Source: a virus
Lineage: Duplodnaviria; Heunggongvirae; Uroviricota; Caudoviricetes
Length of the DNA stretch: 34,224 nucleotides
Strand: one strand, 5' to 3'
IMG/VR virus record: IMGVR_UViG_2563366968_000004
Span: 1-34,224 of that record
Part shown: positions 9,555 through 26,465 of the stretch, piece after piece
How positions within the stretch are numbered: the stretch's first letter is position 1
Layout: each line of letters begins with the position of its first letter
The notes under the pieces: generated by a model
The model's database searches: none
What the model was told of the DNA's origin: nothing
What the model saw: only the letters and a program-made list of their open reading frames with translations
Program-made: the position numbers and the translations under genes

Positions 9555-9581
9555 TATAGTCTTTTTACAAGAAGATCGTTT

Positions 9582-9690
9582 TTACCTGTACCACCTATAC
9601 CACTTTGCTAATTCAGTATTAAAAACAATGTGTTATAGTGGTACAGGTCAATATCTTACCTATACCAGACCTGTACCACCTATACCATTA
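9582..9690. repeat. Iteron cluster CCTGTACCACC(TATACCA) (2 direct copies plus an inverted GGTACAGG copy); candidate ori
   Basis: Copies at 9584-9601, 9632-9644 (inverted) and 9671-9688, immediately downstream of the primase gene. Resembles P4 type-I iterons (TGTTCACC). Confidence 0.5.
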
Positions 9691-9730
9691 ACAAACGCAT
9701 TTCTTCTGGCTGGCTGAGAGGGAACAGCCA

Positions 9731-9961
9731 ATGATGAGCACACCATTTTACAAAGTGCGCCAGTTAGCTTCTTCCTCTGGCTGGCAGCTACGGTTTGAGG
9801 GGCGTTCAGACTGGCTACCCATTGCGGCATGGGCGAATGTTGAAATGTGTATTGACGGCGATACCGTTGAAATCATTATTCCCTGCGTGGCAAGTCGGGA
9901 CGGCTGTATAGAGCCAACAGATATGGCAGCAGAAATCAGAGAGGTAAAACATGAACAATAA
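9731..9961 (+). CDS. Hypothetical protein (76 aa)
   Basis: ORF with purine-rich RBS, lying between the two iteron clusters. Confidence 0.5.
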   Translation: MMSTPFYKVRQLASSSGWQLRFEGRSDWLPIAAWANVEMCIDGDTVEIIIPCVASRDGCIEPTDMAAEIREVKHEQ

Positions 9962-10688
9962 CTATTGCATACCGCAGGGAATGACCAGAACGGAGCGCGA
10001 AGAATTAAAAAGTTTCGCTACACAGTGCGGGAATGCTGGCGACATCCAAAGTCTGGAACGCACTTTAATTATGATTGCGCACTGGATGCGTCAGGGGCAA
10101 AGGGTTTCATTTACTGAATATGCCAGCCAGTGGACAGAGGCACAGCGCGAACGGAGCGACGGTAATCACTCAACACCCGAAATGGCGAAGCAATGGCCTT
10201 TCAGTGGTAAACGCTGTATCAGTCCCGGTGGTTCAGATTATTACCCTGCTGGTGTGGGAGATGAGCCATGTTGTGACGAGACTGAAATCCGCCACGCAGT
10301 GACAGTAATTACCGCTGAATACCCACAATTTAACCTTGACGGACTGGCGCTCCACAACCGGAATGCGGACTGGGAAAACCCGCTTGATAACCCGTCATTT
10401 ATCGTATCGGCGAAAAGCTGCCTGAGATGGATCAGAGACAACGGGATGAGTAATGCCCAGATTGAGAGCTTCCCGCAGGATAACCCCACATCTGACACGT
10501 TGAAGCATGAAGTGGAGCGATATAACCAGATAAACCACCAGCACAGTGATCACCCGCACTATATCCCCAACGGAGCATTTATTGCGGCGATGGTGGCAAG
10601 CGGCTACAAGGTTAAGCCAGCGGGAAGAATGAACGCATTTTTCAATATTTCAAAAAAAGGATTATGTGCTGCTATGGGTAAAAATTAA
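9951..10688 (+). CDS. Hypothetical protein (245 aa)
   Basis: ATG overlaps the upstream ORF; no family recognised. Confidence 0.55.
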   Translation: MNNNYCIPQGMTRTEREELKSFATQCGNAGDIQSLERTLIMIAHWMRQGQRVSFTEYASQWTEAQRERSDGNHSTPEMAKQWPFSGKRCISPGGSDYYPAGVGDEPCCDETEIRHAVTVITAEYPQFNLDGLALHNRNADWENPLDNPSFIVSAKSCLRWIRDNGMSNAQIESFPQDNPTSDTLKHEVERYNQINHQHSDHPHYIPNGAFIAAMVASGYKVKPAGRMNAFFNISKKGLCAAMGKN

Positions 10689-10691
10689 ATA

Positions 10692-10800
10692 AATGGTACA
10701 GGTCTGTACAGGTGGGGAGAGGTCATTTTTACCCACCTGTACCACCTGCAGGCCGCGCTACACAAGGGTTTGTGACATGGTGGTACAGGTGGTACAGCAA
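10692..10800. repeat. Second iteron cluster (GGTACAGG / CCTGTACC in both orientations); candidate crr-like cis replication region
   Basis: GGTACAGGTCTGTACAGGTGG, CACCTGTACCACCTGCAGG and GGTGGTACAGGTGGTACAGC read directly; same core as the 9582-9690 cluster. Confidence 0.5.
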
Positions 10801-11162
10801 AAACAGCGATTTTCTTTATAAGGTATGTTTTGCTCATCTGGCAGACGGAGGTATTCGCTGCGGTTTGGCACGTAGCCCAGAACAGCAAAGAGTTTTACGA
10901 GACTTTTGTAAAATCCAGTGTACAAGGGCGTGACGTTTTTGAAGGAGAGACCTACGAAATTTTCGTAGTTCAAAAAATAGCCTCTGAGATGTTGTTATGC
11001 CTGTTCAGCAAACCATCCGCATAGCTGATCGCGAATCAAATTACCAATGGAGCCAGAAGCAAGGGCAGAACTGGAAAGCGCCTGCCGTGAAGAGTAATGC
11101 GACATCATAAATATAGTTTTTAGAGTCCATAAAAAACCTGTCAAAACCTGACATACAGAACG

Positions 11163-11196
11163 ATGCCACCAGCTACTGAGCGGTGGCATTTTTTTG
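11163..11196 (+). terminator. Rho-independent terminator (GCCACC-loop-GGTGGC followed by TTTTTTT)
   Basis: ATGCCACCagctactgagcGGTGGCAT then a T7 run, read directly; insulates the downstream operon. Confidence 0.55.
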
Positions 11197-11290
11197 TGCT
11201 ATTTGTTTCATATTTTGCAATCACAATGATGAATGTTGCGTTTTGTGAAACTATAATGACTGTTGTTTTATACAGTTCTAAGGGGACGTT

Positions 11291-11464
11291 ATGGCTATTT
11301 CAGTAAAGCCAGTATTGATAAGTGAGAAGCAAATGGAAGCGATAAAGAAAATTCAGGAGGAGCAGCGTAAAAAATCAGAGGTAGGAGTTGCGCCAACGAT
11401 CCACGAAATTGCTCGGGGATTAATGGATAAGGCGCTGGCTTACACTTTAACTGGACGTGGGTAA
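11291..11464 (+). CDS. Small protein (57 aa), possibly a ribbon-helix-helix type DNA-binding protein; first gene of the cargo operon
   Basis: AAGGGG RBS 6 nt upstream of the ATG; TATAAT at 11253-11258. Absent from the ORF track (below 60 aa). Stop is 5 nt before the next ATG. Confidence 0.45.
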   Translation: MAISVKPVLISEKQMEAIKKIQEEQRKKSEVGVAPTIHEIARGLMDKALAYTLTGRG

Positions 11465-11468
11465 ATTT

Positions 11469-12935
11469 ATGGCTACTTGGCAACAAGGAATCAACTCAGG
11501 CGGTTTTCTGGCTGGCATCGGTACGCAAAACGAGAATGCGCCAAAGGCAAGCGACATTAACGCAACGCTTGGTCTGATCCGCGAAAACAATGAACTGGCT
11601 CGCTCAGGTGCAAATAACGTTGCTCTGACAGGTCTTCGTGGTCTGGCTGGAGTTGCTGATATTTATAAGCAGCAGCAACAGCAGGAGCGTAAAGCGGCAT
11701 TCCAGAAAGGTTATGCAGATGCTTATGCGTCCGGTGACAGGGAGCAGATGCGTAATCTTATTACAGCATTCCCAGAAGAGTTTGAGGAAGTCCGTAAAGG
11801 GATGAGTTATGTCGATGATGCTCAAAGGGATGATTATGGCAATCTGGCGCTCAAAGCACAGGTAGCCTCATCGCTTGGTCCGGGCGCATTTGGCAGGTTC
11901 ATGATGGATAATGAGCAGGAGATGCGTCGTTTAGGTATCCCTCCAGAAACTATTGCTGAAATGCAGGTTAATGACCCGCAGGGCTTCCAGCATTTCGCAG
12001 GTAATCTGGCGCTGTTTTCTCTCGGTCATGAGAAGTATTTCGATATCAAAGATCAAATGGAAGGTCGGGATATTGAGCGTGGCAAGTTGGCAGAGACAAT
12101 CCGCAGCAATCAGGCTGGCGAAGCACTTCAGGCGAGAGGGCAGGATATTAGCCGAGCAAATGCGTTAACGTCAGCATATGCACCAACAGCAGCAATGCAG
12201 AATTACAATCAGTACGCGCAAATGTTAAAGGCGGATCCAGAGGGGGCGGCGGCATTTGCGGCAGCGGCTGGAATTAATACAAACGCCAAAAAATTAATGA
12301 GTGTTAGAGAAAACGATGATGGCACTGTCACAAAATACTACACAGACGGAAGTGAAGAGCAGGGAAAACTAAACCAGCCAATATCTGGAGATGGGTTTCG
12401 TCCAATAGCTTTGCCAACAGCCCAAAAGATCATGGAAAAGTCGCCAGAAGGGGCTAAAAAAGCTGCTGGATTTGCATACAGGGTTAGGGATGCTCTTGAT
12501 TCAATAGATACACTGAAAGACCAGCTTAGCCCACAGCGAGTGGCGATCATTAATAATGCTTTGGGTAATGGGACGCTGGCTAACTTAACGCTCAGCCCAG
12601 CAGAGCAGCAATACGTTGTTAATGCTAATGACGCAATAATGGCAATACTCCGTCAGGAAACAGGGGCATCTATCCTACCAGCTGAAATGTCCAAATATTA
12701 TCAAATGTATTTCCCTCAGCCTGGTGATTCCACAAAAACCATTGATACCAAGCGCCGGAAGATGGAAAACCAGTTCAATTCGCTGAAAGCTGCTTCTGGT
12801 CGAACTTATGATGCTTTGCGGGTTATTTCAGCAGTTGACAGAGGAACTGCTTCTTCGTCGCAGACATTGCCGCAATCTGAGCAGGTATCACAGCCAGCAG
12901 CCAGCAGTAACTTTTCTTCACTATGGGGTGATTAA
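11469..12935 (+). CDS. Large Ala/Gln-rich hypothetical protein (488 aa from ATG 11469; 492 aa if GTG 11457 is used)
   Basis: Long ORF with good coding character, poly-Q tract (QQQQQ), predicted helical/coiled-coil; no catalytic motif recognised by eye. Confidence 0.7.
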   Translation: MATWQQGINSGGFLAGIGTQNENAPKASDINATLGLIRENNELARSGANNVALTGLRGLAGVADIYKQQQQQERKAAFQKGYADAYASGDREQMRNLITAFPEEFEEVRKGMSYVDDAQRDDYGNLALKAQVASSLGPGAFGRFMMDNEQEMRRLGIPPETIAEMQVNDPQGFQHFAGNLALFSLGHEKYFDIKDQMEGRDIERGKLAETIRSNQAGEALQARGQDISRANALTSAYAPTAAMQNYNQYAQMLKADPEGAAAFAAAAGINTNAKKLMSVRENDDGTVTKYYTDGSEEQGKLNQPISGDGFRPIALPTAQKIMEKSPEGAKKAAGFAYRVRDALDSIDTLKDQLSPQRVAIINNALGNGTLANLTLSPAEQQYVVNANDAIMAILRQETGASILPAEMSKYYQMYFPQPGDSTKTIDTKRRKMENQFNSLKAASGRTYDALRVISAVDRGTASSSQTLPQSEQVSQPAASSNFSSLWGD

Positions 12936-15040
12936 TGGCTAAAGCATGGAAAGATGTTATCGCCTCTCCACAGTATCAGGCGTTAGCACCAGAACAAAAA
13001 GCGCAGGCTCAGGAGCAATACTTCAATGAAGTCGTTGCCCCGAAAGCCGGAGAAAGTGTAGAGCAGGCTAAGCAGGCTTTTTATGCTGCCTATCCACTAC
13101 CATCAACGAATGCAATAGACCGATCCCAATCAGCAACTCAAAATATTCAACATACATCATCTGATAATTCTCTTGCGTCAGGGTATGCAAAGTTAGCTAC
13201 TCAGCAAAGAGAGGGGCTTGAGCGTTCAGCAGAACAGGGAGCCAGTCTTGGGGCTGCGATGCGCGATGCTATAACAGGCGAAAGCCGAATGACTCCAGAG
13301 ATGGAGAGACTGCAAAATGTCGCCTCTGCCCCAGAATTGAACTCACTAAGCATGGATGCCCTAAAGGCTGGATGGTCTCAACTTTTCGGCTCTGACGCGT
13401 CTCAGGAAAAGATTCTTCAGGGAATGGGGGCGACATTAAGGCAGGATGAGAAGGGGAATACTATCGTTTCTCTGCCATCAGGTGATTATGCCCTGAACAA
13501 GCCGGGTTTATCACCGCAAGACCTGACCTCGTTTCTTGCTAATGCGTTGGCGTTTACACCAGCGGGCAGGGCCGGAACGGTGCTGGGGGCCATAGGAAAA
13601 TCAGCAGCTACAGATTTAGCACTACAGGGAGCCACCAGCCTTGCTGGTGGAGAAGATATTGATCCGTTACAAACGGTAATTTCTGCTGGCATTGGTGGTA
13701 TTGGTAAGGGGCTGGAAAATACAGCGAGTGCGGTTTCGAGGGCTGTTCGTGGTGATATGTCGCCTGAAGCAAAGGCTGCTGTCGACTTTGCATCGGAAAG
13801 AAATCTGCCGTTAATGACCAGTGACATGCTGAAAGATAAAACCTTTATGCAGAGTCAGGCTCAGACATTAGGCGAAAGAGTTCCTTTTTTTGGAACCGGT
13901 AAGAATCGGCTGAATCAACAACAAGCACGAGAAAATTTAGTCAGAACATTTAGCGATGGTCTGGGTGGCATTTCTGATAAACAGCTTTATGAATCTGCGA
14001 CTAAAGGGCAACAAAAATTCATTGAGGCAGCAGGAAAGCGATATAACCGCATAATTGACGCTATGGGGGATACCCCTGTCGATCTCTCAAACACGGTAAA
14101 AGCTATCGACAATCAGATTGCCGTGTTAAGCCGCCCGGGCAAATCTCAGGATAGAGCCGCGGTAAAAGTCTTGCAGCAATTTAAAGACGATATCACCAGC
14201 GGACCAAATGACCTGCGTCTGGCGAGGGAAAACAGAACCGATCTTCGAAAGCGATTTATGGCGTCATCTGACACTGTTGATAAAGATACGCTCCAGAAAG
14301 CCAGCGATATTATCTACAAGGCATATACGGCGGATATGAAAAAAGCCGTAGCCAAAAATCTTGGAGCAGACGAAGCCATTAATATGGCAAGGGTTGATCG
14401 CTCATGGTCTAAATTCAATGACATGATGGGAAGAACGCGCGTTCAAAAGGCAATAGCCAGCGGCAAGGCCACGCCTGAGGATGTAACAAAACTCGTTTTT
14501 AGCCAAAGCCCATCAGAACGTTCTCAGCTTTACAGGCTTCTGGATGACAATGGTAGGCAAAACGCACGAGCAGCCATAGTTCAGAATGCTGTAGATAAGG
14601 CGACTGATCCGTCTGGAAATATCAGTGTTGAGAAGTTTATTAATGCGTTACACCGGAACAGGAAGCAATCAGCAACTTTCTTTAAAGGCGTACATGGAAA
14701 GGAACTGGACGGCGTTATTAAATACCTCAACGATACAAGACACGCGGCAAAAGCGAACGTTCAAAACTTAAATGGTCAGCAGCTTTATGGATTGTTAGTT
14801 GGTGGTGGCATCATAAACGCAGCAGTATTAGCGGGGATGCTAAAAACGGCTGCGTTTGTTGTTCCTGCTGCTGGTGCCGTAGGCGGAGCAGCGAAGGCAT
14901 ACGAAAGCCCTGTTATACGAAATGCCTTGTTACGTCTGGCAAATACGCCAAAAGGTAGCACAGCATATGACAGAGCGATCAGTACGGTCACACAATCGCT
15001 CACCAGAGTCGCACAGGCATCACAAAAAGAATCTCAATAA
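12935..15040 (+). CDS. Large Ala/Gln-rich hypothetical protein (701 aa) with C-terminal Gly/Ala-rich hydrophobic hairpin
   Basis: TAATG overlap with the upstream gene. Hydrophobic glycine-zipper segment LYGLLVGGGIINAAVLAGMLKTAAFVVPAAGAVGGAAKA at about 14783-14900; no canonical Walker A. Confidence 0.75.
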   Translation: MAKAWKDVIASPQYQALAPEQKAQAQEQYFNEVVAPKAGESVEQAKQAFYAAYPLPSTNAIDRSQSATQNIQHTSSDNSLASGYAKLATQQREGLERSAEQGASLGAAMRDAITGESRMTPEMERLQNVASAPELNSLSMDALKAGWSQLFGSDASQEKILQGMGATLRQDEKGNTIVSLPSGDYALNKPGLSPQDLTSFLANALAFTPAGRAGTVLGAIGKSAATDLALQGATSLAGGEDIDPLQTVISAGIGGIGKGLENTASAVSRAVRGDMSPEAKAAVDFASERNLPLMTSDMLKDKTFMQSQAQTLGERVPFFGTGKNRLNQQQARENLVRTFSDGLGGISDKQLYESATKGQQKFIEAAGKRYNRIIDAMGDTPVDLSNTVKAIDNQIAVLSRPGKSQDRAAVKVLQQFKDDITSGPNDLRLARENRTDLRKRFMASSDTVDKDTLQKASDIIYKAYTADMKKAVAKNLGADEAINMARVDRSWSKFNDMMGRTRVQKAIASGKATPEDVTKLVFSQSPSERSQLYRLLDDNGRQNARAAIVQNAVDKATDPSGNISVEKFINALHRNRKQSATFFKGVHGKELDGVIKYLNDTRHAAKANVQNLNGQQLYGLLVGGGIINAAVLAGMLKTAAFVVPAAGAVGGAAKAYESPVIRNALLRLANTPKGSTAYDRAISTVTQSLTRVAQASQKESQ

Positions 15041-15058
15041 CTGGTTAGCCATGGATGG

Positions 15059-15478
15059 CTAATTTTTGTTCTTTGCTCTCATCCATAGGTAAAGAAGGGA
15101 AAGAACAAGACAAAAAACAGAGAATAGATAACCTACCTCATATGGTGCGCCAAAAAAATTAGCTATTGATACGGGCAAAAAAGCTGAAGCGATCAAAATT
15201 GAAAGGCAAAAAATAAGCCCAGTAATATAGTTTATTAAATTCTTAAATGAGAAACGTTTTGCTTGATTTACGGTCTTAACGAACGATCGCTTAACGACGG
15301 ATAAAAGCAAATAGATGGCGACAGTTGCTAATGCCCCTTTCCACCAGTCTGGATATAGTTTTGCGACAATCAGACCAAGTAAAACCATGATGACAGCCTG
15401 AGCATTCACACCAACCCTCCCTTTAGCTTTGTTTAGAATGGCAATCATCATATATCCAAGACATGGCATTTGGTACAT
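15059..15478 (-). CDS. Small integral membrane protein (139 aa, about 4 TM helices), convergent to the 701 aa gene
   Basis: Four hydrophobic segments in the translation; stop is 18 bp from the stop of the 701 aa gene. Start codon uncertain (several in-frame Met, no strong SD). Confidence 0.6.
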   Translation of the reverse strand: MYQMPCLGYMMIAILNKAKGRVGVNAQAVIMVLLGLIVAKLYPDWWKGALATVAIYLLLSVVKRSFVKTVNQAKRFSFKNLINYITGLIFCLSILIASAFLPVSIANFFGAPYEVGYLFSVFCLVLSLLYLWMRAKNKN

Positions 15479-15595
15479 AGCTTGGGTCGGGATTTCAAAT
15501 CCGCTCCCAGTTGATGGGGCCGTTACAGTACGCGCATATCCGCTTTATGTGAAACAGGAAGATTTTTCTGATATCACTGCCACAGCAAAACACCA

Positions 15596-15618
15596 ATTTC
15601 GAGACAAGTACGCGCGCG
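15596..15618 (+). repeat. Direct repeat copy A: ATTTCGAGACAAGTACGCGCGCG
   Basis: One of three copies of ATTT(C/T)G-GACAAGTACGCGCGCG (also 15880 and 18178); contains alternating CG. Related degenerate copies at 15525-15543 and 15659-15680. Confidence 0.4.
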
Positions 15619-15879
15619 AGGGGTATCAGTTGCAAAAAATTTTGCAACTACGTCCGACCAGTACGCGCACGATGGAGGGGAGTACCATAAAACTGTTCTC
15701 TACATAAGTCAGAGTAGTGGTGATGTGTTGATTATCGGCGTATATGCGCACAGGACGCGCTATGACGATGTTTTATGCGGGTACACCAATCACATGTATC
15801 TGGTGTGATAAATCGCGTTACATGACCTCTCATGTTGTGCTGGTGGTTATCACGACTTTCTGAATCTGGCCTTTGCCTG

Positions 15880-15908
15880 ATATTTTGCGACAAGTACGCG
15901 CGCGTAGC
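15880..15908 (+). repeat. Direct repeat copy B: ATTTTGCGACAAGTACGCGCGCGTAGCA (contains 12-bp palindrome TACGCGCGCGTA)
   Basis: Read directly; lies about 380 bp upstream of the Abi gene. Confidence 0.4.
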
Positions 15909-16283
15909 ATCGAAATTATCGGATGGCGTATGCTGCTGGCAATATGAAGACCGATAGTATTAACCGAAAAGCGATTAAGGAGTGCCAACTTTTCAGTAGA
16001 GAAACTAGCCAGCATAGGAAAATGTAGAAATTACCCAATTAATAGGTAAAAGTTATTGACACAGCCTGTAGTGGATAACGATATGAATAAAAACCACATA
16101 TAGTGGTTTTTCGTGAGTGATGATAGTACCTATGTTAGTTTCCTAAGTAACTGTGCATTGACATGTGGATAACTTCGGATAGAGTTACACTCAACTGAGC
16201 CCGGCCCCCTGGCTTTATCTTGTCTTAGATGAGAAATTGTTATGGCCGGGCCTTCTTGTATCTGGAGGTAGGAAACCTTTTGT

Positions 16284-17246
16284 ATGGCTGTTCCGGTTAA
16301 GGTTCATAAAGAATATGATGAACTTGTCGATTTATTGCTGTCTCGGGGTATGGATGTGCCAGATCGCGAACATGCTATCAAGAAAATCTCACAAGTAGGC
16401 TACTACCGATTATCAGGCTTTTGGTACCCCTGCCGAATCCCCCATATAACAACAGACAATATTAGAACCAGACTCGATCAGGTTCGTCCAGGTACTAATT
16501 TTCGCGCAGTATATGACCTCTATTTATTCGATAAAAATCTGCGTTTGCAGATGATGAATGCGTTAGAACGCATTGAGGTTTATGTTCGGTCAGTTATTGC
16601 TCATGAGCTTGGTAAGATATCTCCTTTAGCATATCTTGATGACTCGCTAATAAATCCAAAACACTTTAGACCACGTTCCCATGGTCGCCCAAGCGCCAGA
16701 GAAGAATGGATAAATAAACATAATGCCGAGATTGCTAAAAGTCGCGAAGACTTTATCAAATGGCATGAAAACAAGTACGAAGGTCTTCCTTTCTGGGTGG
16801 TTATTGAAGTGTGGGACTTCGGCTTAATGTCAAAGTATTATGCGATGCTAAAAGACAGCTATCGCAACAGGATACTATCTAGGCTAGGGATAGCGGCAGG
16901 CAATGGAGCTATCTTCCAAAACTGGCTTAGCGCAATGAATGTGCTAAGGAATCGGTGCGCTCACCATTCACGCATCTGGAACAAGGTCAACGAACCAAGA
17001 TTAATGCCTTTGCCAAATGAGCCGTACTTTGAACAATTAAATATGAATGATGATGCGTACGAAAGAATGTACGGAATGATCGCTGTGTTATGGTTTTTAG
17101 TGAAAAAAATTGGACCGGGATCTGACTGGATAAAAAAAGTTGCCAACCTTGTAGATAACAAGCCTAACTTACCAGGATGTAACCTGACAGCCATGGGATT
17201 ACCTGATAATAACGGTTTCCCAAGGCATTTATTTGATATTGAATAA
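16284..17246 (+). CDS. Abortive infection protein, Abi_2 family (AbiD/AbiF-like), 320 aa
   Basis: N-terminal region (LLSRGMDV..., QVGYYRLSGFWYP, VYDLYLFDKNLRLQMMNALERIEVYVRSVIAHE) matches the Abi_2 family pattern. AT-rich gene with a roughly 800 bp AT-rich leader. Confidence 0.8.
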   Translation: MAVPVKVHKEYDELVDLLLSRGMDVPDREHAIKKISQVGYYRLSGFWYPCRIPHITTDNIRTRLDQVRPGTNFRAVYDLYLFDKNLRLQMMNALERIEVYVRSVIAHELGKISPLAYLDDSLINPKHFRPRSHGRPSAREEWINKHNAEIAKSREDFIKWHENKYEGLPFWVVIEVWDFGLMSKYYAMLKDSYRNRILSRLGIAAGNGAIFQNWLSAMNVLRNRCAHHSRIWNKVNEPRLMPLPNEPYFEQLNMNDDAYERMYGMIAVLWFLVKKIGPGSDWIKKVANLVDNKPNLPGCNLTAMGLPDNNGFPRHLFDIE

Positions 17247-17247
17247 A

Positions 17248-17703
17248 TTATAGCGATGGCGCTGAATGTAGCGCCACTGATAACTTTTCAGCATTGCTTC
17301 CCTGACGCTTCCACGCGCTGTAAATATCTTTATCCCATGCCTTACCAGCTTTTGTTTGATAGCCTGCTTCATTGATCCGTTCAGCTATCACGCGCCCATT
17401 ATCAAATCCCTGTCGGATGGTATCGGCAATGATCTTTATAACTGCCGTTTCGTTATATGGCTTTGGTGGGATGTTCGGCTTTCCGGCAATAAGCGACGCA
17501 GCGGCTTTTTCCATGCGCTCCACCAGCCCAAGCATTCGTGAATCAATAGACTTTTCCGGCTGTCCCAGCTTCATGCGAATCGCATCAACAAGCCAGGAGG
17601 TTTTATCCCCTCCAGAAGCGAGAACAGACCGATTAAACTCATCCTGCAATTCAGATGGGATGCGGAACGCGACCAGATTAGATTTGCTCATTGCAAAGAC
17701 CAT
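17248..17703 (-). CDS. Putative DNA-binding protein with N-terminal ribbon-helix-helix-like motif (151 aa)
   Basis: N-terminus NLVAFRIPSELQDEFNRSVLASGGDKTSWLVDAIRMKL resembles the CopG/Arc RHH fold; stop is 1 bp from the Abi stop (convergent). Confidence 0.55.
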   Translation of the reverse strand: MVFAMSKSNLVAFRIPSELQDEFNRSVLASGGDKTSWLVDAIRMKLGQPEKSIDSRMLGLVERMEKAAASLIAGKPNIPPKPYNETAVIKIIADTIRQGFDNGRVIAERINEAGYQTKAGKAWDKDIYSAWKRQGSNAEKLSVALHSAPSL

Positions 17704-17715
17704 ATCAGTGAGTAA

Positions 17716-17750
17716 TATCCATACAGTATACCACTGTATAACACTGTTAT
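17716..17750. promoter_or_regulatory. Operator-like palindromes in the divergent promoter region (TACAGT-N5-ACTGTA and GTATAACA-C-TGTTATAC)
   Basis: Perfect inverted repeats read directly between the divergently oriented RHH-like and PerC-like genes. Confidence 0.3.
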
Positions 17751-17855
17751 ACGCTCAAATATCAGCCAGAAAATAACGGACCAATCACAAAGCTATCGCT
17801 GTGTTGTTGGTTCAGAGCTGGGCTGTGTTGGTTCAAAATAATCTGAGAGGCAGAA

Positions 17856-18137
17856 ATGATAAGGGACAGGAAAGCTGAAGAGCTGGAGTCAAAAGGGCTA
17901 TACCGGAGAGCTGCCGCACGATGGATGGAAGTCATGCTGTTATGCACCGAGGACGATGATCGGGAATGGATAAAGCGCCGCCGTGAAACGTGTCTGGAGA
18001 ACGTGAAGCGCCCGCCCGTGAAGGTTGAGGACTTTGGCGACCTGCATAAAGCTGTTACCGAAACGCAACACCGCATGGGGATAGCGCAACCGAACGGTAA
18101 CGCCTTCCGGTTAAATGGCGGCAAGAGGCAAAGGTAG
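17856..18137 (+). CDS. PerC-family transcriptional regulator (93 aa)
   Basis: Signature ELESKGLYRRAAARWMEVML is characteristic of the PerC family. Confidence 0.7.
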   Translation: MIRDRKAEELESKGLYRRAAARWMEVMLLCTEDDDREWIKRRRETCLENVKRPPVKVEDFGDLHKAVTETQHRMGIAQPNGNAFRLNGGKRQR

Positions 18138-18177
18138 ACCACCAGAGGGAAATCATCCTCTGGCTGGCGGTTTCTGG

Positions 18178-18208
18178 TATTTCGGGACAAGTACGCGCGC
18201 GCGTAGCA
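18178..18208 (+). repeat. Direct repeat copy C: ATTTCGGGACAAGTACGCGCGCGCGTAGCA (14-bp palindrome TACGCGCGCGCGTA)
   Basis: Same motif as 15596 and 15880; copies B and C bracket the Abi/RHH/PerC module. Confidence 0.4.
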
Positions 18209-18434
18209 CCCAATCGGTGAGGAAATAGCGGCGACCTGAATGGTCAAAATCACAACGCAGCTATCCCCGTAAGCAGCGCTTAACGGAATAGCAGTAACCT
18301 GAATCCAGTGGGGAGGGGGTAGTCAAATCTCTACAGCCCTGACTATCCGGGACTGCCCGCCCCATCGTTTTTTTATACCCGCGAAAAATGAAATTTAATC
18401 CGGGCGTGTTTCATCCTTCCAGAGGGTATGACGT

Positions 18435-18620
18435 ATGACACCACGCGAAATAGCCTTATTGACCATCGCCAAACTTGAGCACGGAGGCCACCAGCTTACA
18501 CAGGCAGATCAACGGGAGATAGAACGATCAGTTAATGCCGATATAGCCCGGCGCGACAGGTTCCGCGAAATGATGCGAGCACCTGCCTACCAGTGGAAGA
18601 AGCCAGCGCCGCGCAGGTAG
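18435..18620 (+). CDS. Hypothetical small basic protein (61 aa)
   Basis: ORF with GAGGG RBS; no family recognised. Confidence 0.35.
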   Translation: MTPREIALLTIAKLEHGGHQLTQADQREIERSVNADIARRDRFREMMRAPAYQWKKPAPRR

Positions 18621-18740
18621 ATATGGGATTATTCCACATGTAACTTATGCGTATTAAGCAAATTTCCTTTATTCACCTTTACAGAATTGTGAGTACGTCA
18701 GTATCGTTATCCTTCCGATTCGCATTTATTCAGGATTTGC

Positions 18741-19283
18741 ATGTACCAGCTAAAGATAACCATCCGAGACAGCAAACCACCTATATGGCGGCGTGTGCTG
18801 GTTCCAGAGCAAATCCCCTTTAGTAAACTTCATGCCGTGATCCAGTTAGCTTTTGGCTGGAATGACGAACACCTGTATATGTTCGAGAAAGGGCGTAAAG
18901 GTGATCCAGGTAGCGAGTATCGCGTATGGGGTGAGGATGAAAGCATGGGTAACGCGGCAATCACGCCACTATGGGCGGCGCTCCAGAATGAGGGTGACAA
19001 GCTGGTTTACACGTATGACTTTGGCGACTGGTGGGATTGCGTCATTGTGCTGGAGAAGCAAACACACGATACGAGTAATCAGCCCATTAGCTGCCTGCGT
19101 GGGAAAGGCACCACCCCGGCGGAAAACTCAGGCGGCTTGCATGGTTACAATGAATTGCTATTACAGGCCAGAGAGTCTGATAATCCTGAGCAGGCCGAGA
19201 TCCACAATTTCCTGATGCTGGATATTGAACGCCGGGTTTACGACCTGAGCCGCATCAACGACAGATTGCAGGCTATTTACTGA
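18741..19283 (+). CDS. Plasmid pRiA4b ORF-3-like family protein (180 aa)
   Basis: N-terminal LKITIRDSKPPIWRRVLVP...FGWNDEHLYMF and the YDFGDWWD motif resemble the pRiA4b ORF-3 family; assignment from memory. Confidence 0.6.
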   Translation: MYQLKITIRDSKPPIWRRVLVPEQIPFSKLHAVIQLAFGWNDEHLYMFEKGRKGDPGSEYRVWGEDESMGNAAITPLWAALQNEGDKLVYTYDFGDWWDCVIVLEKQTHDTSNQPISCLRGKGTTPAENSGGLHGYNELLLQARESDNPEQAEIHNFLMLDIERRVYDLSRINDRLQAIY

Positions 19284-19635
19284 CCCGCATGTATTCACCT
19301 GATATTGCGTTGTCAGCGCCGCCAGTATCGCGCATAACAGCGCACTGACCGGGTAAACCGTAGCGCACGACCGTTGCGTTAGTATCACCGCCGCGCCGTA
19401 TCTGGCGCGATTCATACACTGTCACCCGCTCAAGCAGTCCACCAGCAACCATGCTTTCCAGTGTGCGCCGGGTTGATTCGAGCTGGTGACGCTTATCGAA
19501 CGACACCATGCCATGAAGCAGGTAGGCCACACCCGACACATCGAACGGCGGCGCACCAATCTCACCAGTCACCCATTCGAGGTTATCCGGTTCAAAGTAG
19601 CTAAGTATCTCTTTTTTGCGACTGGTCATTCTCAT
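19273..19635 (-). CDS. Hypothetical protein (120 aa), convergent and overlapping the pRiA4b-ORF3-like gene by 11 nt
   Basis: Clean ORF; no family recognised. Confidence 0.45.
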   Translation of the reverse strand: MRMTSRKKEILSYFEPDNLEWVTGEIGAPPFDVSGVAYLLHGMVSFDKRHQLESTRRTLESMVAGGLLERVTVYESRQIRRGGDTNATVVRYGLPGQCAVMRDTGGADNAISGEYMRVSK

Positions 19636-19753
19636 GGCTGGCTGATTCCTTATTGTGGGATAGCACTATCATACAATAAGTGGGTTAAAGGGAGAGCGTT
19701 ACCGCCTGATATGCTGTATGAATAACAACCAAATTTCAGGGGCGGAAAAAGAT

Positions 19754-19777
19754 ATGGGGGTACTTTTGGGGGTATCT
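19754..19777 (+). repeat. Second copy of the ATGGGGGTACTT(A/T)TGGGGGTAT motif at the satellite/prophage junction
   Basis: 21 of 22 positions identical to 1557-1578; lies in the AT-rich gap between the last satellite gene and the lambdoid integrase. Confidence 0.4.
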
Positions 19778-19862
19778 ATAAAAAATGAACAATAAAAAAG
19801 GCAACAAAAACAAAGATTATCGCCTATGTGTATTGTTCCTATTATCCATTTAAATCAATAAG

Positions 19863-21026
19863 TTACACATCATTAGTACCTTCCTTATTTTTTGACTGGG
19901 ACAAATTTGGGACCGATGGGTTCAGGATCGAGTCTATTTGCCGTGCGTGTTCGGTAAGGTGATTAGGTGCAAGGTGAGCATATCGACGAACCATTTCGAT
20001 AGACTCCCAGCCTCCCATTTCCTGTAACACTGACAACGGGACTCCGGCTTGAACCAGCCAGCTTGCCCAGGTGTGTCTCAAGTCGTGAAATCTGAAATCA
20101 TCAATACCAGCCCGTCTCAGCGCCGCTTTCCAGGCTGTGTTTGCGTCATACCGCATCTTCCTGACCGTTGGCGCTTTCGTTCCGTCTGGTTTGGTACAGC
20201 TTTCCTTGTACACAAATACCCAACGGTGATGATTCCCGATTTGTTTTTTCAATACGCGACATGCAGTATCATTCAGCGCAACGCCAATTGCGCGGTTTGA
20301 TTTACTCTCTTCCGGGTTTATCCATGCCACCCGGCGCTGCATGTCTATTTGTTGCCATTCAAGGTTGATGATGTTCGAGCGTCTTAAGCCTGTTGCCAGT
20401 GCAAATTCAACAACAGACTTTAATGGCTCCGGACATTCATCAATCAGCCTTTGTGCTTCATGGGGCTCCAGCCAGCGGATCCGTTTATTCTTTGGTTGAG
20501 GCACTTTAATAATTGGTGCCTTATCCAGCATTTTCCATTCACGCTCTGCGGCTCTTAGTAGGGCCTTTATAAATGAAAGATGCGTAGCCTTTGTTGCAAC
20601 GGACGCTGGTTTTGGCATGTATTCTGGAACAGGTTTCCCTTTTTTTCTGCATGCTTCTGCCCTGAGTTTCCAGTTTTCCTCATGACGCCGGTTCGTCATT
20701 TTCTGCATTGCTGAATAAATTTTTGATTCAGTAATGTCTCTTAGTTGCATTCCTGCGAAATGTTGAAGCCAGAATCCGATCCGGCTTTTGTCATCGTCCA
20801 GTGATTTTTTATGTGCTTTCTCTTCGAGCCACCTGATACACGCCTCCTCGAACGTCATATCAGGTATTTCACCAAGTTTGCTGACCCGCCATGCTTCAGC
20901 CTTTAGCTTGTCATGGAGCTCTGTCGCCTGCCTTTTGTCCTTTGTTCCAAGAGACTGTTTAAATCTTTTACCGTTCGGCAATGTGAAACTGGCGTACCAT
21001 ATTTCACCTCTGCGGAAGAGTGACAT
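19863..21026 (-). CDS. intR: Lambdoid prophage tyrosine integrase (Rac IntR-like), 387 aa
   Basis: Translation recognised as closely related to Rac-type IntR ([46 protein letters not shown]..., ...[18 protein letters not shown]...RYAHLAP). Confidence 0.9.
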
Positions 21027-21253
21027 TTTCTTTCCTCTGTTATGCCATCACCCGCGCTCACCAGGACAGTATGCAGCGGAGACTGAAGCGCCGCAATGCA
21101 GGCTTGTCGTGTTGTGAGGTAAGGAGATTTTAGTTTAGTGGGGTCTTTGCGTGTTGCCTGTAGGCGGCCTGTTCGTATCCAGTTGGTAGCGGTAGGTCTG
21201 GATATCTTGAGAAACTGACAGGCCTCATCGAGTGTGAGGCTGTATGGCTCCAT
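20903..21253 (-). CDS. xis: Excisionase (Xis-like HTH), start at internal ATG 21253
   Basis: [33 protein letters not shown] is an excisionase-type HTH. ATG has a GAGGTG RBS and a TAATG overlap with the upstream gene; 3' end overlaps int. Confidence 0.6.
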
Positions 21254-21558
21254 TATTTCACCTCTTGCTGTGTCATTGTTGAAAAATGGATACCAGCTCG
21301 TTGCTGCCAGACGATCCAACCGAGAGTCATATCCCATGCCATGTATTCGTTATCGCCGTTTTTTGCTCTCCGACGATCTACTAAGTCACCGAAACGCTTT
21401 TCCATGAATAATTCATAGGCTTCGCGTTCATCTGGCTCTACTTCCAGAGATACGAGTGCGATTTCATAAGCACGGCGCTCAATATCGTCTCGAACCTCTA
21501 GGCTGCTGATTCGTTCTTTGATTTCTTTAATCAGTTCTTTATTGGTAAATGTGGTCAT
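21253..21558 (-). CDS. Hypothetical early protein (101 aa), Rac YdaC-like
   Basis: Position between xis and the next early genes; resemblance to small Rac early proteins is tentative. Confidence 0.5.
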   Translation of the reverse strand: MTTFTNKELIKEIKERISSLEVRDDIERRAYEIALVSLEVEPDEREAYELFMEKRFGDLVDRRRAKNGDNEYMAWDMTLGWIVWQQRAGIHFSTMTQQEVK

Positions 21559-21920
21559 TATGCTCCAGCCTCCGGTGCTTTTGGCATTACTGCCCAGTGA
21601 GTGATATTGACGTTTTCAAGGTCCCCGACCTGAAATGTCCACTGCCATTCTCCGGTTTCTTTTTGTCCCCAGGTGTACCAGAGAGAACGCCAGCCAATCA
21701 GCCAGCCTTCTCCATTAGCATCAAATAACAGAACACTTTCATTTGCTGGTGGCAGTTCAGCTGACACTGGTATTATTTTGTTTTCCAGTGCCGCACATTT
21801 AGCTTCAAGCGCGTCGAATTTACGTACCAGGTACTCAGCATTTGTTTCGTTCACTTTCAGATCTCGCGGTACACATTTCCCGCGAAGAAACCCTTCCATT
21901 TCGAAAACATTCATGCGCAT
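21558..21920 (-). CDS. DUF551-like phage protein (120 aa)
   Basis: C-terminal W-rich motif (WYTWGQKETGEWQWTF...THWAVMP) typical of DUF551; ATGA overlap with the downstream gene. Confidence 0.55.
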   Translation of the reverse strand: MRMNVFEMEGFLRGKCVPRDLKVNETNAEYLVRKFDALEAKCAALENKIIPVSAELPPANESVLLFDANGEGWLIGWRSLWYTWGQKETGEWQWTFQVGDLENVNITHWAVMPKAPEAGA

Positions 21921-22447
21921 TTGCGTAACTCCGATAAATCGTTAAAACGTTCCATAAACATCCCGTAGGCATGACCCGGTGCCAGTGGAATCACGTTGAA
22001 CATCTCTGTTGCCGGGATGCCTTCCAGTACAGGCCAGAAAGAGCCATCATCAAGCCCGAGATCGCGGCGTTCGGTTGCCAGCATGATGAGATCGGCATAT
22101 TTCACGGGTGTACTCATAACTGGGGGTAACCCGTATTTCTCACGGATTACGGCGTCTATTTTTTCTTCCATCCGTTTATAGTCAGGAAGAAGGCGTTTCA
22201 GTGGTGCGGGAATGTCCTGGCAATACGCTTCTGTTGCATCATGCATTAACGCTTCAAAAGCAAATTCCTGCGGCACCAGCTGGCTGCAAAGAACCGCATG
22301 TTGGGCGACGCTGTAGAAGTGCGAAAGATGACCGGCAAAGCGACAGATATTTGAAAGGGAAACCGCGATATCGTTAATATCGATGTCGTCTTTATTTATC
22401 TTGTCATAATAAAAATGCTTCCCGGAAAAAGTTTTAATAAATGACAT
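21911..22447 (-). CDS. HD-domain phosphohydrolase (YfdR-like 5'-deoxynucleotidase), 178 aa from ATG 22447
   Basis: HD motif in ...FEALMHDATEAYCQDIP...; GGAG RBS 8 nt upstream of the internal ATG (MSFIKTF...). Matches CPS-53 YfdR in size and sequence. Confidence 0.8.
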   Translation of the reverse strand: MSFIKTFSGKHFYYDKINKDDIDINDIAVSLSNICRFAGHLSHFYSVAQHAVLCSQLVPQEFAFEALMHDATEAYCQDIPAPLKRLLPDYKRMEEKIDAVIREKYGLPPVMSTPVKYADLIMLATERRDLGLDDGSFWPVLEGIPATEMFNVIPLAPGHAYGMFMERFNDLSELRKCA

Positions 22448-22574
22448 TTTGTTCTCCACGTATATGCACTGCACCGCGCTGAATTCTGGTAAAAGGAAGC
22501 CCTCACCATCCGGTGATTATTGAGTTAATTACGTTTCCATAAATGCCCCCGCAGGGGCATTTGCAGTAATGAAA

Positions 22575-23399
22575 TCAGGCGGTGAAAGTACCAATAAAGG
22601 TTTCTACTTTGCTGTCTTTGAATTTCTCAACAAGCAGATCACGAAATTCGTTAGCCATTTCTTCCTGCACCGCTTCCAGCTGAATAATGCGCAGAACCAG
22701 TACAGGACGATCGCCAGTGATAATGCTGAGGCGTAATTTAAACGGACGTTCTTTCAGACCTTCAAACGGAACGCATTTAAATTCAAATGTCACTGGCATA
22801 ATGTCTTTGGTCTTCGCTTCGACAGACTCCATCAGGGAGCGTTTGCCGCTGAAGTCATTATCTTCAAAATCAGCGGTCTGGTTCGCTTCAATTGTGATTT
22901 TACGGATCGCCGCAGCCGCTTTGGTTGCCTGAATGGCGTCACCATTAGCATCAAAGCCCACAAGGTAGTCGGCCCAGTCTTCAATCCATTCTGCCAGTGA
23001 CTTCTGGGAGTTACGCTCGCCGTTAACAGACAACAGGGCAGAGAACGGTGCTGTCTTTTTCAGTTTGAGAGTGGCGGTGTTATCTGCGTGACCTGGTTCA
23101 TCAATAGTACCCAGGTTAAGCACACTGACGGCTCGCATATTATCGGCATCGATAAAGCAGCGGGTGCCTTCATCTGCAAGATCTTTAGAATAACGGGTAA
23201 AGTCATCGATGCTGGCAGTGGAAAGCGCACCACGGAAACGGAAGCGATTTAAATTAAATTTTTCCAGATCATGAATGCGGAAATTCTCAGGCAATGCCAC
23301 AGCATCGGCACCAATCTTACTGATAATTTCATTAACACCCTGAGCAGAAATAAGGGCATGGATTTGATTAATTGCGGTTGCGTCTAAGTTCTGAGACAT
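22575..23399 (-). CDS. DUF2303 family protein (YfdQ-like), 274 aa
   Basis: Translation recognised as YfdQ-like; same gene order as the CPS-53 yfdP-yfdQ-yfdR cluster. Confidence 0.75.
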
Positions 23400-23464
23400 A
23401 ATAAGTCCTCACTATATAAAGATATTCAGTGATGAGATAAATAATCAGTTTATTAAGAACGATA

Positions 23465-23827
23465 TTAATGACCTGCTGCGCGTAGTTTTCCGTCAGGTTC
23501 ACCGGCAAGAGTCAGTAATTGTCCCTGGTCTTCCTGCAGAATAGTCAGGCGACCACCGCGATTGACATACATCGGCGTTTCGGTGGTGTCTTCTTCGGAA
23601 ATTTTCCCGCGGTTAGTTGGGCGAACATATGAGAGTTTGTGTTTGATTTTCACACGGTTCTCATCAAACGGTTCGATTTCCAGGTTGAGCGAGACCTTAC
23701 CTTTGGTTTTCGTGTTCATCACACCGGAAGCGACTTCACTGAGAACAGCGCCGATTTTGGTTTCAAATACGCCGCCGTCCAGCTCCCCGATAAATGCCTG
23801 CACATCAGTACTGCGTTCGCTAGCCAT
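23465..23827 (-). CDS. YfdP-like protein (120 aa from ATG 23827)
   Basis: GAGGAG RBS upstream of the internal ATG (MASERSTDVQAFIGELDGG...); the longer ORF to 24058 has an implausible N-terminus. Confidence 0.65.
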   Translation of the reverse strand: MASERSTDVQAFIGELDGGVFETKIGAVLSEVASGVMNTKTKGKVSLNLEIEPFDENRVKIKHKLSYVRPTNRGKISEEDTTETPMYVNRGGRLTILQEDQGQLLTLAGEPDGKLRAAGH

Positions 23828-24529
23828 TTTGCTGCTCCTCATCATATCGACCCTGCAAGGTCGGTTGGTTTCTCCACAAAACAGAGAAGAACACCTGCGG
23901 TGACTGCCGCCCGGATGGATTGGGTTATGAGCCCGTCGTCCGGTGATTCTCTTCTCTGTTTTGTAAAAAGAGCGGTACCAGCCGGAAGCAAGGGTACAAA
24001 CTGGTACCGCCAAAGCAGTGGCTGTTGTGGTGGGGTTGTCACTCAGGCGTATGGTCAACCTGACAATCCGGTGCCCTCAACGGGGAAAGAGTAACCCCGC
24101 CATACTTACCGCCGCGCCATTTCGCGGATTACCACAACGCTGAGAGCACTTAGCCAGTTACGGCACCACACTTTGTCGCGGCTCCATAAATGCCCTCATC
24201 GTTGCACCCTGGTCTCTTCCCAGGCGTCAAACCGAATCGCCACGCTGGTTAGGCGTCTTATCAGCATCATCATTGACTTGCACATTCCGGCTACCTGGTT
24301 TGTTTGCCCGAGCAAGGAGTGGATTGTCCCCTTTAACGTCCCCAGACCGCTAACGACGCATGTGCCATACGCCGTGTTACAACCAAATTTTGTTAGTACC
24401 TTGTTTGTTTGTCTGGAAAGAAAGATAAAATGAAGTTGCGCATTATGCAAGTGTTTTTGTTGCGAGATATGCAATTTAAAGGGTAATGAAAAGCCACCTT
24501 TGGGTGGCTAATTGATGAGGAGGTAAGGG

Positions 24530-25222
24530 TTAATTGTGTCGCTTAAGGGTTTGTGACTGGCTGATTAAGACCTTTCCAAAGACCATAAACCGGTGTTCAT
24601 TTTCGCTGGTAATTCCCCATTCACGGTAAATCTGGTTATCAGAAATCACCAGTAGTTTGTCAGGTATCATTTGCAGTCGTTTGACATAAATTTTATCATC
24701 AAAACCAAATACATAGATACCATCTCCATCAAACTGATTGATACTGACATCAACGAAGATGAGATCTCCTGGCTCAATGGTTGGACACATACTGTCCCCA
24801 CGAACGTTGATAACTTTAATGTGATTGGCTGGCCGTCCGCCAAACATCGATACAGCATTATCAGTTCTGTATTCAATGGCATGAATCACATCAATGACAT
24901 CACCGCCCTGGATAAGGCCATTTCCCGCACTGGCACTGACATCCAGCATTTCAATACGGAATACATCCTTCACCTGCGCAACATCCTCACTAATACTGTT
25001 TTTACATACAGTATTACTTTTGACGTCTGAGGTAAAGAGATCAGCAATATCAACACCTAAGCTCCTGGCAATATTACTCAGGGCTTGTTCAGTGAATTGT
25101 TTCTGCTTACCTGTTTCCAGGCGTGAGATATTCGCCGCATCCACTCCTATTGCTTCAGCGAGATCGGCGATTTTCATGTTCTTCGCCTGGCGAAGTTGTC
25201 TGACTCGGTTTCCTATGTTCAT
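24530..25222 (-). CDS. cI: CI-like prophage repressor (N-terminal XRE HTH + C-terminal S24 LexA-like peptidase), 230 aa
   Basis: HTH (MKIADLAEAIGVDAANISRLETGKQ), S24 motifs (RGDSMCPTIEPGDLIFVD, Ser nucleophile; YVKRL, Lys); divergent from the cro-like gene. Confidence 0.85.
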   Translation of the reverse strand: MNIGNRVRQLRQAKNMKIADLAEAIGVDAANISRLETGKQKQFTEQALSNIARSLGVDIADLFTSDVKSNTVCKNSISEDVAQVKDVFRIEMLDVSASAGNGLIQGGDVIDVIHAIEYRTDNAVSMFGGRPANHIKVINVRGDSMCPTIEPGDLIFVDVSINQFDGDGIYVFGFDDKIYVKRLQMIPDKLLVISDNQIYREWGITSENEHRFMVFGKVLISQSQTLKRHN

Positions 25223-25319
25223 GCGTTTATTACATTTCTTTATTGCGCGTTAAGCAAATCAACTTGCGCAAAATATTTGCGTGAAATAATATGCTCATCA
25301 CGCAATATGTGGAGGTCAT
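25223..25319. promoter_or_regulatory. Immunity-region operators/promoters (TTGCG...CGCAA palindromes between cI and cro)
   Basis: CGCAAAATATTTGCG and TTGCGTGA-N13-TCACGCAA inverted repeats read directly between the divergent repressor genes. Confidence 0.5.
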
Positions 25320-25580
25320 ATGCAATCACCATTACGGAATGTGCGTAAGGCGCACGGATTTACTTTGCAGCATGTTGCTGCTGGCGTTCAGGTCAATCCA
25401 GCGACGCTGAGTCGTATTGAAAGACTGGAACAAATTCCATCTATCGATCTTGCAGAACGTCTGGCCAATTTTTTTAAGGGTGAAATCAGCGAAATGCAGA
25501 TTCTTTATCCGGCACGTTTTCAATCTAGCCAAAACCAGAATGGGTTTAAACCACAGGAACAGGAGGTAAGCCGTGGGTAA
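25320..25580 (+). CDS. cro: Cro-like HTH regulator (86 aa)
   Basis: GGAGG RBS 5 nt upstream; HTH (FTLQHVAAGVQVNPATLSRIE); divergent from cI. Confidence 0.65.
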   Translation: MQSPLRNVRKAHGFTLQHVAAGVQVNPATLSRIERLEQIPSIDLAERLANFFKGEISEMQILYPARFQSSQNQNGFKPQEQEVSRG

Positions 25581-26130: not shown

Positions 26131-26465
26131 ACAGTTTAACAACACACTACCGTCGCTCGCAACTGATTGCGCTTCCTGTACCGGGTGGAAAAGCGAAGGT
26201 GGAGTATTGCTATGCAGTAAATGTACCAGGTGACAGGGAAATTGTAACCCACAGCTTTGCTGAGTGGGCTGTGGGAGATTTCAACCGGCAGAAGGAGACA
26301 GTCCTTTGCGACAAGTTAACCGCTGGTTCAAAGATCACTACGGAGTGCCCGTCAGAGTCATTCGTTGGGAGCCGGAAACACAACGGGTTATCTACCTCCG
26401 TGAAGGCTATGAGCATGAGTGCTTCAGCCCGCTCGAACAGTTTCGTCGTAAATTCAGGGAAATAG
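26127..26465 (+). CDS. Hypothetical ORF (112 aa); 3' two-thirds overlap the DUF4222 frame
   Basis: ATGA overlap with the upstream gene suggests a real start, but the C-terminal half is Ser-rich and overlaps a better ORF in another frame. Confidence 0.3.

Follow-up and report, generated by a model that had tools for sequence, protein, structure and literature searches.

The stretch of viral DNA considered here (IMG/VR record IMGVR_UViG_2563366968_000004; hereafter the window, meaning all 34,224 nucleotides (nt), with coordinates counted from its first letter) raises the question of what the short repeats around an abortive-infection (Abi_2) gene are. The gene lies in the accessory end of a phage-inducible chromosomal island (PICI) of the EcCIMP1 family, and a preliminary description had placed it in a cassette bracketed by GC-alternating direct repeats, possibly recombination or regulatory sites. 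From the sequence comparisons we are highly confident that the repeats derive from an Sf6-type small-terminase gene (terS), one segment of which they copy in short, non-coding form. We further propose, with a probability of about one half, that they may serve as pac-type sites for an Sf6-type terminase, that is, as packaging signals for the capsids of helper phages.

The motif GACAAGTACGCGCGCG has three exact occurrences (15603, 15889 and 18186) and one with two mismatches (15656), always on the + strand. These four matches compare with 0.26 expected, and none of 100 shuffled sequences reached four. A repeat finder returned a 28-nt repeat family at 15591, 15877 and 18174. The preliminary description was right about the places and the common orientation of these three copies (A, B and C) and about the presence of two weaker ones, at 15656 (A') and 15525-15539. 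Copies B and C are near-duplicates of 37-38 nt in direct orientation with 2.3 kb between them. The core had also been called a perfect palindrome, TACGCGCGCGTA, which is correct for copy B only; the version in copy C is 14 nt long and that in copy A imperfect. Strains differ in the length of the CG run in copy C, which is CGCGCGCGCG in the window (18186-18206) and CGCGCGCG in the related locus L002 (5258-5276), as expected from slippage in a dinucleotide run.

The resemblance to terS was found with the pattern common to all copies, TTYGNGACAAGTACGCG. It has a single match, at 18876-18892, in the 39.4-kb genome of the P22-like phage Kapi1, against 0.02 expected with one mismatch allowed. The match lies inside terS, about 1% of the genome, at the codons ...HEDFRDKYAKA..., and 17 of 17 pattern positions agree within the terS genes of Kapi1 and Sf6; coincidence with the mapped Sf6 pac site is a separate matter. 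The near-invariant core of the copies, TTTYGNGACAAGTACGC, occurs exactly once in Kapi1, again within the small-terminase gene. Kapi1 TerS is the same as the Sf6 gene 1 protein (gp1; PDB 3HEF, 4DYQ) at every aligned residue, and the corresponding segment of the gene in both phages is nt 173-189, with codons F-R-D-K-Y-A-R/K-A. Copies A, B and C, all outside any conserved open reading frame (ORF), read F(R/C)DKYAR in the terS frame, and in copy A the reading extends to AKHQFRDKYAR, compared with AKHEDFRDKYAK in TerS.

Further terS genes carry the same segment. Eighteen IMG/VR contigs that are not islands have the exact 16-mer of the motif in Sf6-type terS at the homologous codons, F.DKYARA, so that the GC-alternating part of the repeat corresponds to the Arg-Ala codons CGC GCG. 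GACAAGTACGCGAAGGCA was found in 56 of 56 distinct Kapi1/Sf6-type terS genes retrieved, one of which has AAA for the AAG Lys codon. Phage N7, which has the nearest database relative of the island gp16, was considered and rejected, its TerS being of a different type and its genome lacking the motif. A genuine gene across copy A was also rejected: a 126-amino-acid (aa) ORF is open there in L058 and L063 and frameshifted in the window and in L003. In L022 a different frame runs through the motif, and tblastn with the C-terminal part of the ORF gave no matches.

Why should a satellite carry such copies? Kapi1 both induces EcCIMP1, a PICI of E. coli MP1, and transduces it (Pick, Stadel & Raivio 2025; PMC11773190). 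No terminase or capsid genes are identifiable in EcCIMP1, the authors state that the way it is packaged is unknown, and it is the only island of the family for which excision and transfer upon helper induction were shown (PMC11773190). The window island has an integrase, an AlpA-type regulator, a primase (PHROG 1.3e-92) and PerC, and is without capsid, lysis and terminase genes according to the RefSeq annotation of an identical locus. In P22-like phages pac is located within the terS gene, and the P22 pac is 22 bp (PMC8022706, PMC9611059). About 100 bp past copy C the island also has a cos region of the SfII type, identical in EcCIMP1 and absent from Kapi1, so this cos should be unusable with Kapi1. 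Since the island has no terS, Sf6-type packaging needs a site and the cos is of no use with Kapi1, the terS look-alike copies are the obvious pac candidates. A P22-like helper such as Kapi1 would bind them through its octameric TerS, as it does the site in its own gene, TerL would then cut nearby, and headful packaging would run in the + direction, with island concatemers entering helper capsids. Twice the length of EcCIMP1 (2 x 19,963 bp) is close to that of Kapi1 (39,436 bp), a relation that would fit headful packaging of concatemers. As a side effect, the copies could titrate helper TerS.

The distribution of the motif is consistent with a role of this kind. A scan of one genome from each of 185,579 species with a 21-nt pattern returned only two Serratia elements and four unrelated matches in metagenome-assembled genomes; the repeats are thus rare and confined to this satellite family rather than common genome-wide, in keeping with the preliminary description. 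A CG-palindrome with the pattern in contig L186, which forms an intergenic hairpin followed by a T run, was treated as an unrelated match. In IMG/VR, the exact 16-mer was present in relatives of the island, in a second lineage that carries it in the ash leader (L022, L045, L059) and in environmental phage contigs. In the compact relative L196 one copy is in the ash leader and another follows PerC, and the Serratia elements have one copy and a partial second beside their origin iterons; these other lineages all have one or two copies, at different positions. EcCIMP1 carries the same three copies as the window in spite of differing ejection genes, membrane-protein gene and cargo, and homology between the two islands picks up again exactly at the 480-bp block with the copies. 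Across lineages the near-invariant part is the asymmetric 5' half that contains TTTYGNGACAAGTACGC, the same part as in phage terS, and the palindromic CG run is the least conserved, being variable in length and interrupted in L196. The copies share one orientation, which is also that of the cos site and of a fragment of an ES18-type terS gene discussed below. Parts of 15000-19900 are present in 2,099 of 5,426 complete E. coli genomes.

In one metagenomic contig (L063/L140; IMG/VR contig 3300045988_004969), a Kapi1-like terS-to-gp26 segment is joined to gp20/gp16 of the island type, the motif block and alpA_1; the contig is a true phage-island recombinant or else a chimeric assembly.

Several observations count against a packaging role. 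Compared per column in 12 distinct sequences, the motif is conserved no better than the rest of its 437-nt block, and in 56 distinct Sf6-type terS genes the synonymous sites are without clear constraint at the motif, both comparisons being uninformative as to extra conservation. Two of the five copies are decaying. Kapi1 has AAGGCA at the place of the CGCGCG of the island copies, and the searches made returned no enterobacterial terS with the exact island 16-mer; a distant blastn search of the 5,426 E. coli genomes with the B region, aimed at an intact terS with the motif, found only unannotated island DNA. The Sf6 pac site is reported to map to the portion of gene 1 coding for the DNA-binding domain of TerS. 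The motif codons, 56-63, we take to be at or just beyond the end of that domain, so the motif may not coincide with pac. Transduction of EcCIMP1 by Kapi1 takes place at very low frequency only (PMC11773190). Finally, the observations are sequence identities, positions, orientation and distribution, and from these we infer binding by TerS, cutting and packaging.

The terS look-alikes are accompanied by sequences of two other packaging systems. The cos region aligns at 82-95% identity with those of SfII, SfV, SfIV, phiP27 and ST64B (Table 1). In phiP27 the homology spans the annotated cos-site between the HNH and terS genes, including the 10-nt cohesive end; the island equivalent, TGCCCGCCCC at 18354-18363, aligns with the annotated CGCCCGCCCC of phiP27 and with the same bases of SfII. 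A text search of the EcCIMP1 paper returned neither the word "cos" nor any discussion of these repeats (PMC11773190). Abutting copy B is the decayed 5' part of an ES18-type terS gene, matched by the terS genes of ES18 and SPN3UB at 85-91% identity (E 2e-3 to 6e-3). A longer version in L058 (6323-6432) is collinear with nt 74-196 of ES18 terS (pairwise E 6e-10), and the fragment is truncated to differing extents by strain. A tblastn search with the 39-aa translation of the remnant was not significant, and the identification rests on the DNA alignments. With a cos, an ES18-type terS fragment and the copies side by side, the gene-free island DNA has the appearance of an assortment of packaging signals suited to several types of helper. 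That EcCIMP1-family islands hold a library of signals from at least three unrelated terminase systems (Sf6-type pac copies, ES18-type terS fragment, SfII/phiP27-type cos) is a tentative proposal, and we consider it doubtful as a whole.

Could the copies instead be inert relics? They might be what remains of one or several decayed Sf6-type terS genes, or of past recombination with helper phages, duplicated in the island and now without function. The ES18-type fragment beside copy B is visibly decaying in just this manner, with nested truncations at query positions 39, 75, 95, 122 and 171; the copies at 15525 and 15656 are degenerate, and the lack of extra conservation in the motif noted above would be expected of relics. 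On the other hand, no other part of an Sf6-type terS survives in the island, the same ~17-22 nt were kept in at least four island lineages from two genera, at different positions and always in one orientation, and in the shortest version of the nested left endpoints copy B is whole with everything beyond it gone. We regard functionless remains as unlikely.

Regulatory sites are a less probable explanation again. The copies could be operators or promoter elements for PerC, AlpA, a host protein or the product of the 151-aa gene that converges on abi and was described as RHH-like, or else Z-DNA-prone supercoiling switches. All copies lie between genes, the core is an alternation of purines and pyrimidines that forms a palindrome in B and C, and the Serratia copy lies between the gene for the RHH homologue and the origin iterons. 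It is, however, the palindromic CG run that varies and the asymmetric 5' half that is conserved. The candidate regulators do not accompany the motif consistently: no RHH homologue was detected in the 13.9-kb L022 stretch, which has the motif and a PerC homologue, and no PerC homologue in the 8-kb Serratia stretches. The 151-aa gene already has a conserved palindromic sequence of its own as its likely operator (17720-17749), and the match to helper terS would be left unexplained.

The reading with which the locus was first presented, that the repeats are attC- or att-like recombination sites which delimit and mobilise cargo, now appears very improbable. In its favour, 2.3 kb are enclosed by B and C as direct repeats of 37-38 nt, and one class of relatives loses homology exactly after copy B, at 15913. 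Among about 25 related loci, however, the other left breaks fall at 15949, 15966-15969 and 16203 and the right breaks at 17281, 17293 or 17838. With breakpoints so scattered, none of them at copy C and no boundary at copy A, most of the bracket idea is not supported: repeats at both ends of an exchanged unit were not seen in these loci, the right edge of B being the only coincidence, in one class only. Copies B and C do flank the Abi, RHH-like and PerC genes as had been stated, but the iteron cluster is also inside and they are not exchange borders; an excised B-C unit would remove the origin-like region together with PerC. Single copies occur in relatives without adjacent variable cargo. There is no recombinase between 15041 and 19846, and the island integrase uses TCCTATTATC. 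Circular B-C products, empty sites with one hybrid repeat and a repeat on both sides of unrelated cargo were all absent from the ~25 loci.

Still less probable is an antisense RNA, in which a leftward transcript with 17-18 nt complementary to helper terS mRNA would lower helper terminase: satellites commonly interfere with helper packaging and a promoter-like TTGCCA-N16-GATAAT (15942-15915) would read B, A' and A into the gene for a 139-aa membrane protein, but promoter-like sites in the region number 7 against 7.6 expected in shuffles, this one is missing from L002-type loci (break at 15913), copy C and the copies of other lineages have no such arrangement, and an Rfam search of 15400-18800 at E <= 5 returned no family. 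Structured RNA at the repeats was rejected on the same search and because the arms flanking copy B are missing in L002-type loci.

If the repeats are not cassette borders, what is the Abi_2 gene doing between them? It is a separate accessory defence gene, in a slot between the block with copies A and B and the origin-linked 151-aa gene. Its identification as satellite cargo was sound: the profile matches (Table 1; the Pfam gathering score for Abi_2 is 25.6 bits) leave the family clear, and the slot varies between strains, holding another Abi allele (L004, L083), a 66-73-aa gene (L002, L003) or an alpA-type gene with a 72-aa gene (EcCIMP1, L058). The translation has a HEPN-like motif, RNRCAHH, with R-x4-6-H present by eye as LRNRCAHHSRIW. 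Relatives of abi at 88-89% protein and 76-78% DNA identity sit in other surroundings; in L179 and L183, homologues of a 61-aa island protein and of the 151-aa protein are its neighbours, the former upstream and the latter convergent. The gene itself adds little: it is a new member of a family already known, and satellite slots of this kind are known too.

The leader of abi had been described as ~800 bp and AT-rich. A gene-free stretch of 805 nt is indeed present, but it is AT-rich only at ~15900-16200 (GC 0.355-0.39), and the part that carries copies A and B has a GC content of 0.44-0.485. The two TTGACA...GTGGATAAC elements reported in it were recovered at 16056 and 16158, against 0.01 expected, and the second is the probable abi promoter itself. 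TTGACA is found at -126 in every relative and the conserved form among them is TTGACA-N16-TAnAnT, the spacer not being conserved. DnaA-box control of abi was rejected since GTGGATAAC lies in that spacer and is missing from the 76%-identical relatives. The leader downstream folds with a z-score of -2.9 against shuffles. In a consensus structure from eight sequences, both sides have changed in two pairs and one side in several others, and the hairpin shows compensatory substitutions in relatives (window 16186-16283; L179-L184, L004). The structured leader probably limits abi expression.

On the other side of abi, the convergent gene that had been called RHH-like is present as an ORF of 151 codons, but no profile backs the label: it has no Pfam or PDB match, and the name therefore rests only on its N-terminal sequence pattern. 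A homologue (67% aa identity) stands beside iterons in the Serratia element L090 and another (73%) beside abi in L179. This is a core gene linked to the origin and conserved in Serratia, and the palindromes upstream of it are likely its operator. In relatives, the cluster between the 151-aa gene and perC consists of three direct copies of TGTTGGTTCA, an AT-rich spacer and three inverted copies (L002 4770-4895; L096). A 106-bp deletion has left two iterons in the window, and the window island may replicate poorly as a consequence. The PerC-like regulator had been recognised correctly (Table 1), and the PerC homologue of EcCIMP1 represses LEE1 (PMC11773190).

Table 1. Coordinates of the repeats and of other features of the island (window numbering)
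Feature	Position	Strand	Basis or remark
EcCIMP1-family PICI, integrated at tRNA-Thr	1428-19846	+	att core TCCTATTATC at 1428-1437 and 19837-19846
Degenerate copy ACAGTACGCGCATAT	15525-15539	+	seen directly in the sequence; best local match to Kapi1 terS just 8 nt
Copy A, TTTCGAGACAAGTACGCGCGCG	15597-15618	+	terS-frame reading QFRDKYARE; 17/18 positions match Kapi1 terS
Perfect palindrome GTTGCAAAAAATTTTGCAAC between A and A'	15629-15648		sequence; 23-nt self-complementary match also seen
Degenerate copy A', GACCAGTACGCGCACG	15656-15671	+	2 mismatches
Copy B (core 15889-15904)	15877-15913	+	terS-frame reading IFCDKYARV; Kapi1 terS match 19/20, one gap
Decayed ES18-type terS fragment, 5' part (N-terminal region)	15906-15960	+	abuts copy B
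Probable abi promoter, TTGACA-N16-TAGAGT	16158-16185	+	best sigma-70-like site of the region; spacer holds DnaA-box-like TGTGGATAA
Structured abi 5' untranslated region	16199-16275	+	GC-rich hairpin 16199-16252, then CUUCUU tract able to pair with GGAGG ribosome-binding site
Abi_2 (AbiD/AbiF-type) gene	16284-17246	+	Pfam Abi_2 3.6e-52, 177.8 bits; PADLOC AbiD 2.7e-57, 192.6 bits
151-aa gene, RHH-like N-terminus	17248-17703	-	convergent ORF
Two overlapping palindromes (ATACAGT..ACTGTAT; ATAACA-C-TGTTAT), putative operator	17720-17749		upstream of 151-aa gene; similar palindrome at the same place in Serratia
Two remaining TGTTGGTTCA iterons	17805-17835	+	origin-like cluster; rest removed by 106-bp deletion at 17839
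PerC-family regulator	17856-18137	+	Pfam PerC 1.7e-30
Copy C (core 18186-18201)	18174-18212	+	terS-frame reading VFRDKYARA-stop; Kapi1 terS match 17/18
cos region, SfII/SfV/SfIV/phiP27/ST64B type	18305-18408	+	82-95% identity, E down to 2e-22

The att cores at 1428 and 19837 give the island a length of 18.4 kb. It is inserted at a tRNA-Thr gene (1369-1441) between proA and the yagU side, and the identical RefSeq locus is annotated, in order, with proA, tRNA-Thr, integrase, helix-turn-helix regulator, antirepressor, ash, primase, two P22-type ejection proteins, a small membrane protein, Abi, PerC, a PRiA4_ORF3 protein and a second integrase. The ejection proteins (11457-15478) are gp20-like (Inj_translocase, 6.8e-85) and gp16-like (67.5% identical to that of phage N7). 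The 139-aa membrane-protein gene follows them on the opposite strand, at the position of sieA in P22. Within the ORF annotated as 'ash family', adjoining Rfam matches to isrK (63 bits) and C4 antisense RNA (80 bits) were found at 5283-5471. Directly after the cos, where cos phages have terS, there is a 61-aa ORF (18435-18620) whose only match is a weak one (2.1e-6) to a PHROG without an assigned function; its homologue upstream of abi in L179 and L183 is diverged. No Rpp- or Ppi-like protein was identified in the island, this 61-aa ORF being outside that check. In tandem with the island, the window holds a prophage (19863-34224) that is SfII/SfIV-like, with 60-67% of its length at 96-97% identity. 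As it belongs to the same phage family as the island's cos, it is a candidate cos helper.

Should the copies be pac sites, a satellite without a terminase gene would have copied the intragenic pac of its helper, would hold signals for several helper types and could be packaged by headful podoviruses as well as by cos phages. The 17-nt core would then mark the sequence recognised by Sf6-type TerS, which would be of use since TerS-DNA recognition in pac phages is difficult to show in vitro (PMC9611059). The terS look-alikes and the previously unremarked cos are two concrete, mutable candidates for the packaging of EcCIMP1-family islands. More generally, short repeats near the defence genes of satellites can be hijacking signals and not cassette borders.

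How does the locus compare with known systems? The AbiF/Abi_2 gene of C. difficile with its RNA antitoxin RCd22 (PMC12373285) shares with the window the Abi_2 domain, the R-x4-H motif, a promoter ~126 nt upstream and a structured leader with a GC hairpin at its end, ahead of the ribosome-binding site. The upstream RNA of the RCd22 type has two abiF motifs, whereas the window leader is one hairpin unit whose role as an antitoxin is that of a candidate; the Rfam abiF motif (RF03085) gave no match at E <= 5 in 15400-18800. The defence hotspots of P4-like satellites and PICIs (for example PMC13586616; bioRxiv 10.1101/2021.01.21.427644) are alike in that defence and accessory genes are swapped between strains in a fixed slot. 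The slot of the window has a proposed packaging-signal block on one side and an origin-linked gene on the other, belongs to another PICI family and was seen with few alternative contents.

EcCIMP1 itself is the closest system. The two islands have ~9 kb of DNA homology and share the integration site, the att core, the layout of integrase, AlpA, antirepressor, ash, primase and PerC, the three motif copies and an identical cos. The window island differs in its ejection-protein genes, its primase allele and the 106-bp iteron deletion, and it has Abi_2 with the 151-aa gene in place of alpA_1 with the 72-aa gene. The two iteron clusters of EcCIMP1 are reminiscent of the ori and crr of P4.

Like the intragenic pac of P22-like phages (P22 gene 3; Sf6 gene 1), at which TerS recognition initiates headful packaging, the island motif is a short asymmetric terS sequence, of ~17-22 nt and as a candidate only. 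It differs from them in being outside genes, in being present in three to five copies and in having the CG run for the AAGGCA of the phage, and its overlap with the real Sf6 pac is putative. Other satellites also carry a helper packaging site and no terminase, namely SaPIbov5 (cos; packaged by cos and pac helpers), EcCICFT073 (cos with Rpp) and P4 (the cos of P2). The window island resembles them in having no terS or terL of its own and a helper recognition site in its DNA, here a full cos of the SfII/phiP27 type. It would differ from them in its proposed second signal, which is taken from the intragenic pac region of a helper and is present in multiple copies.

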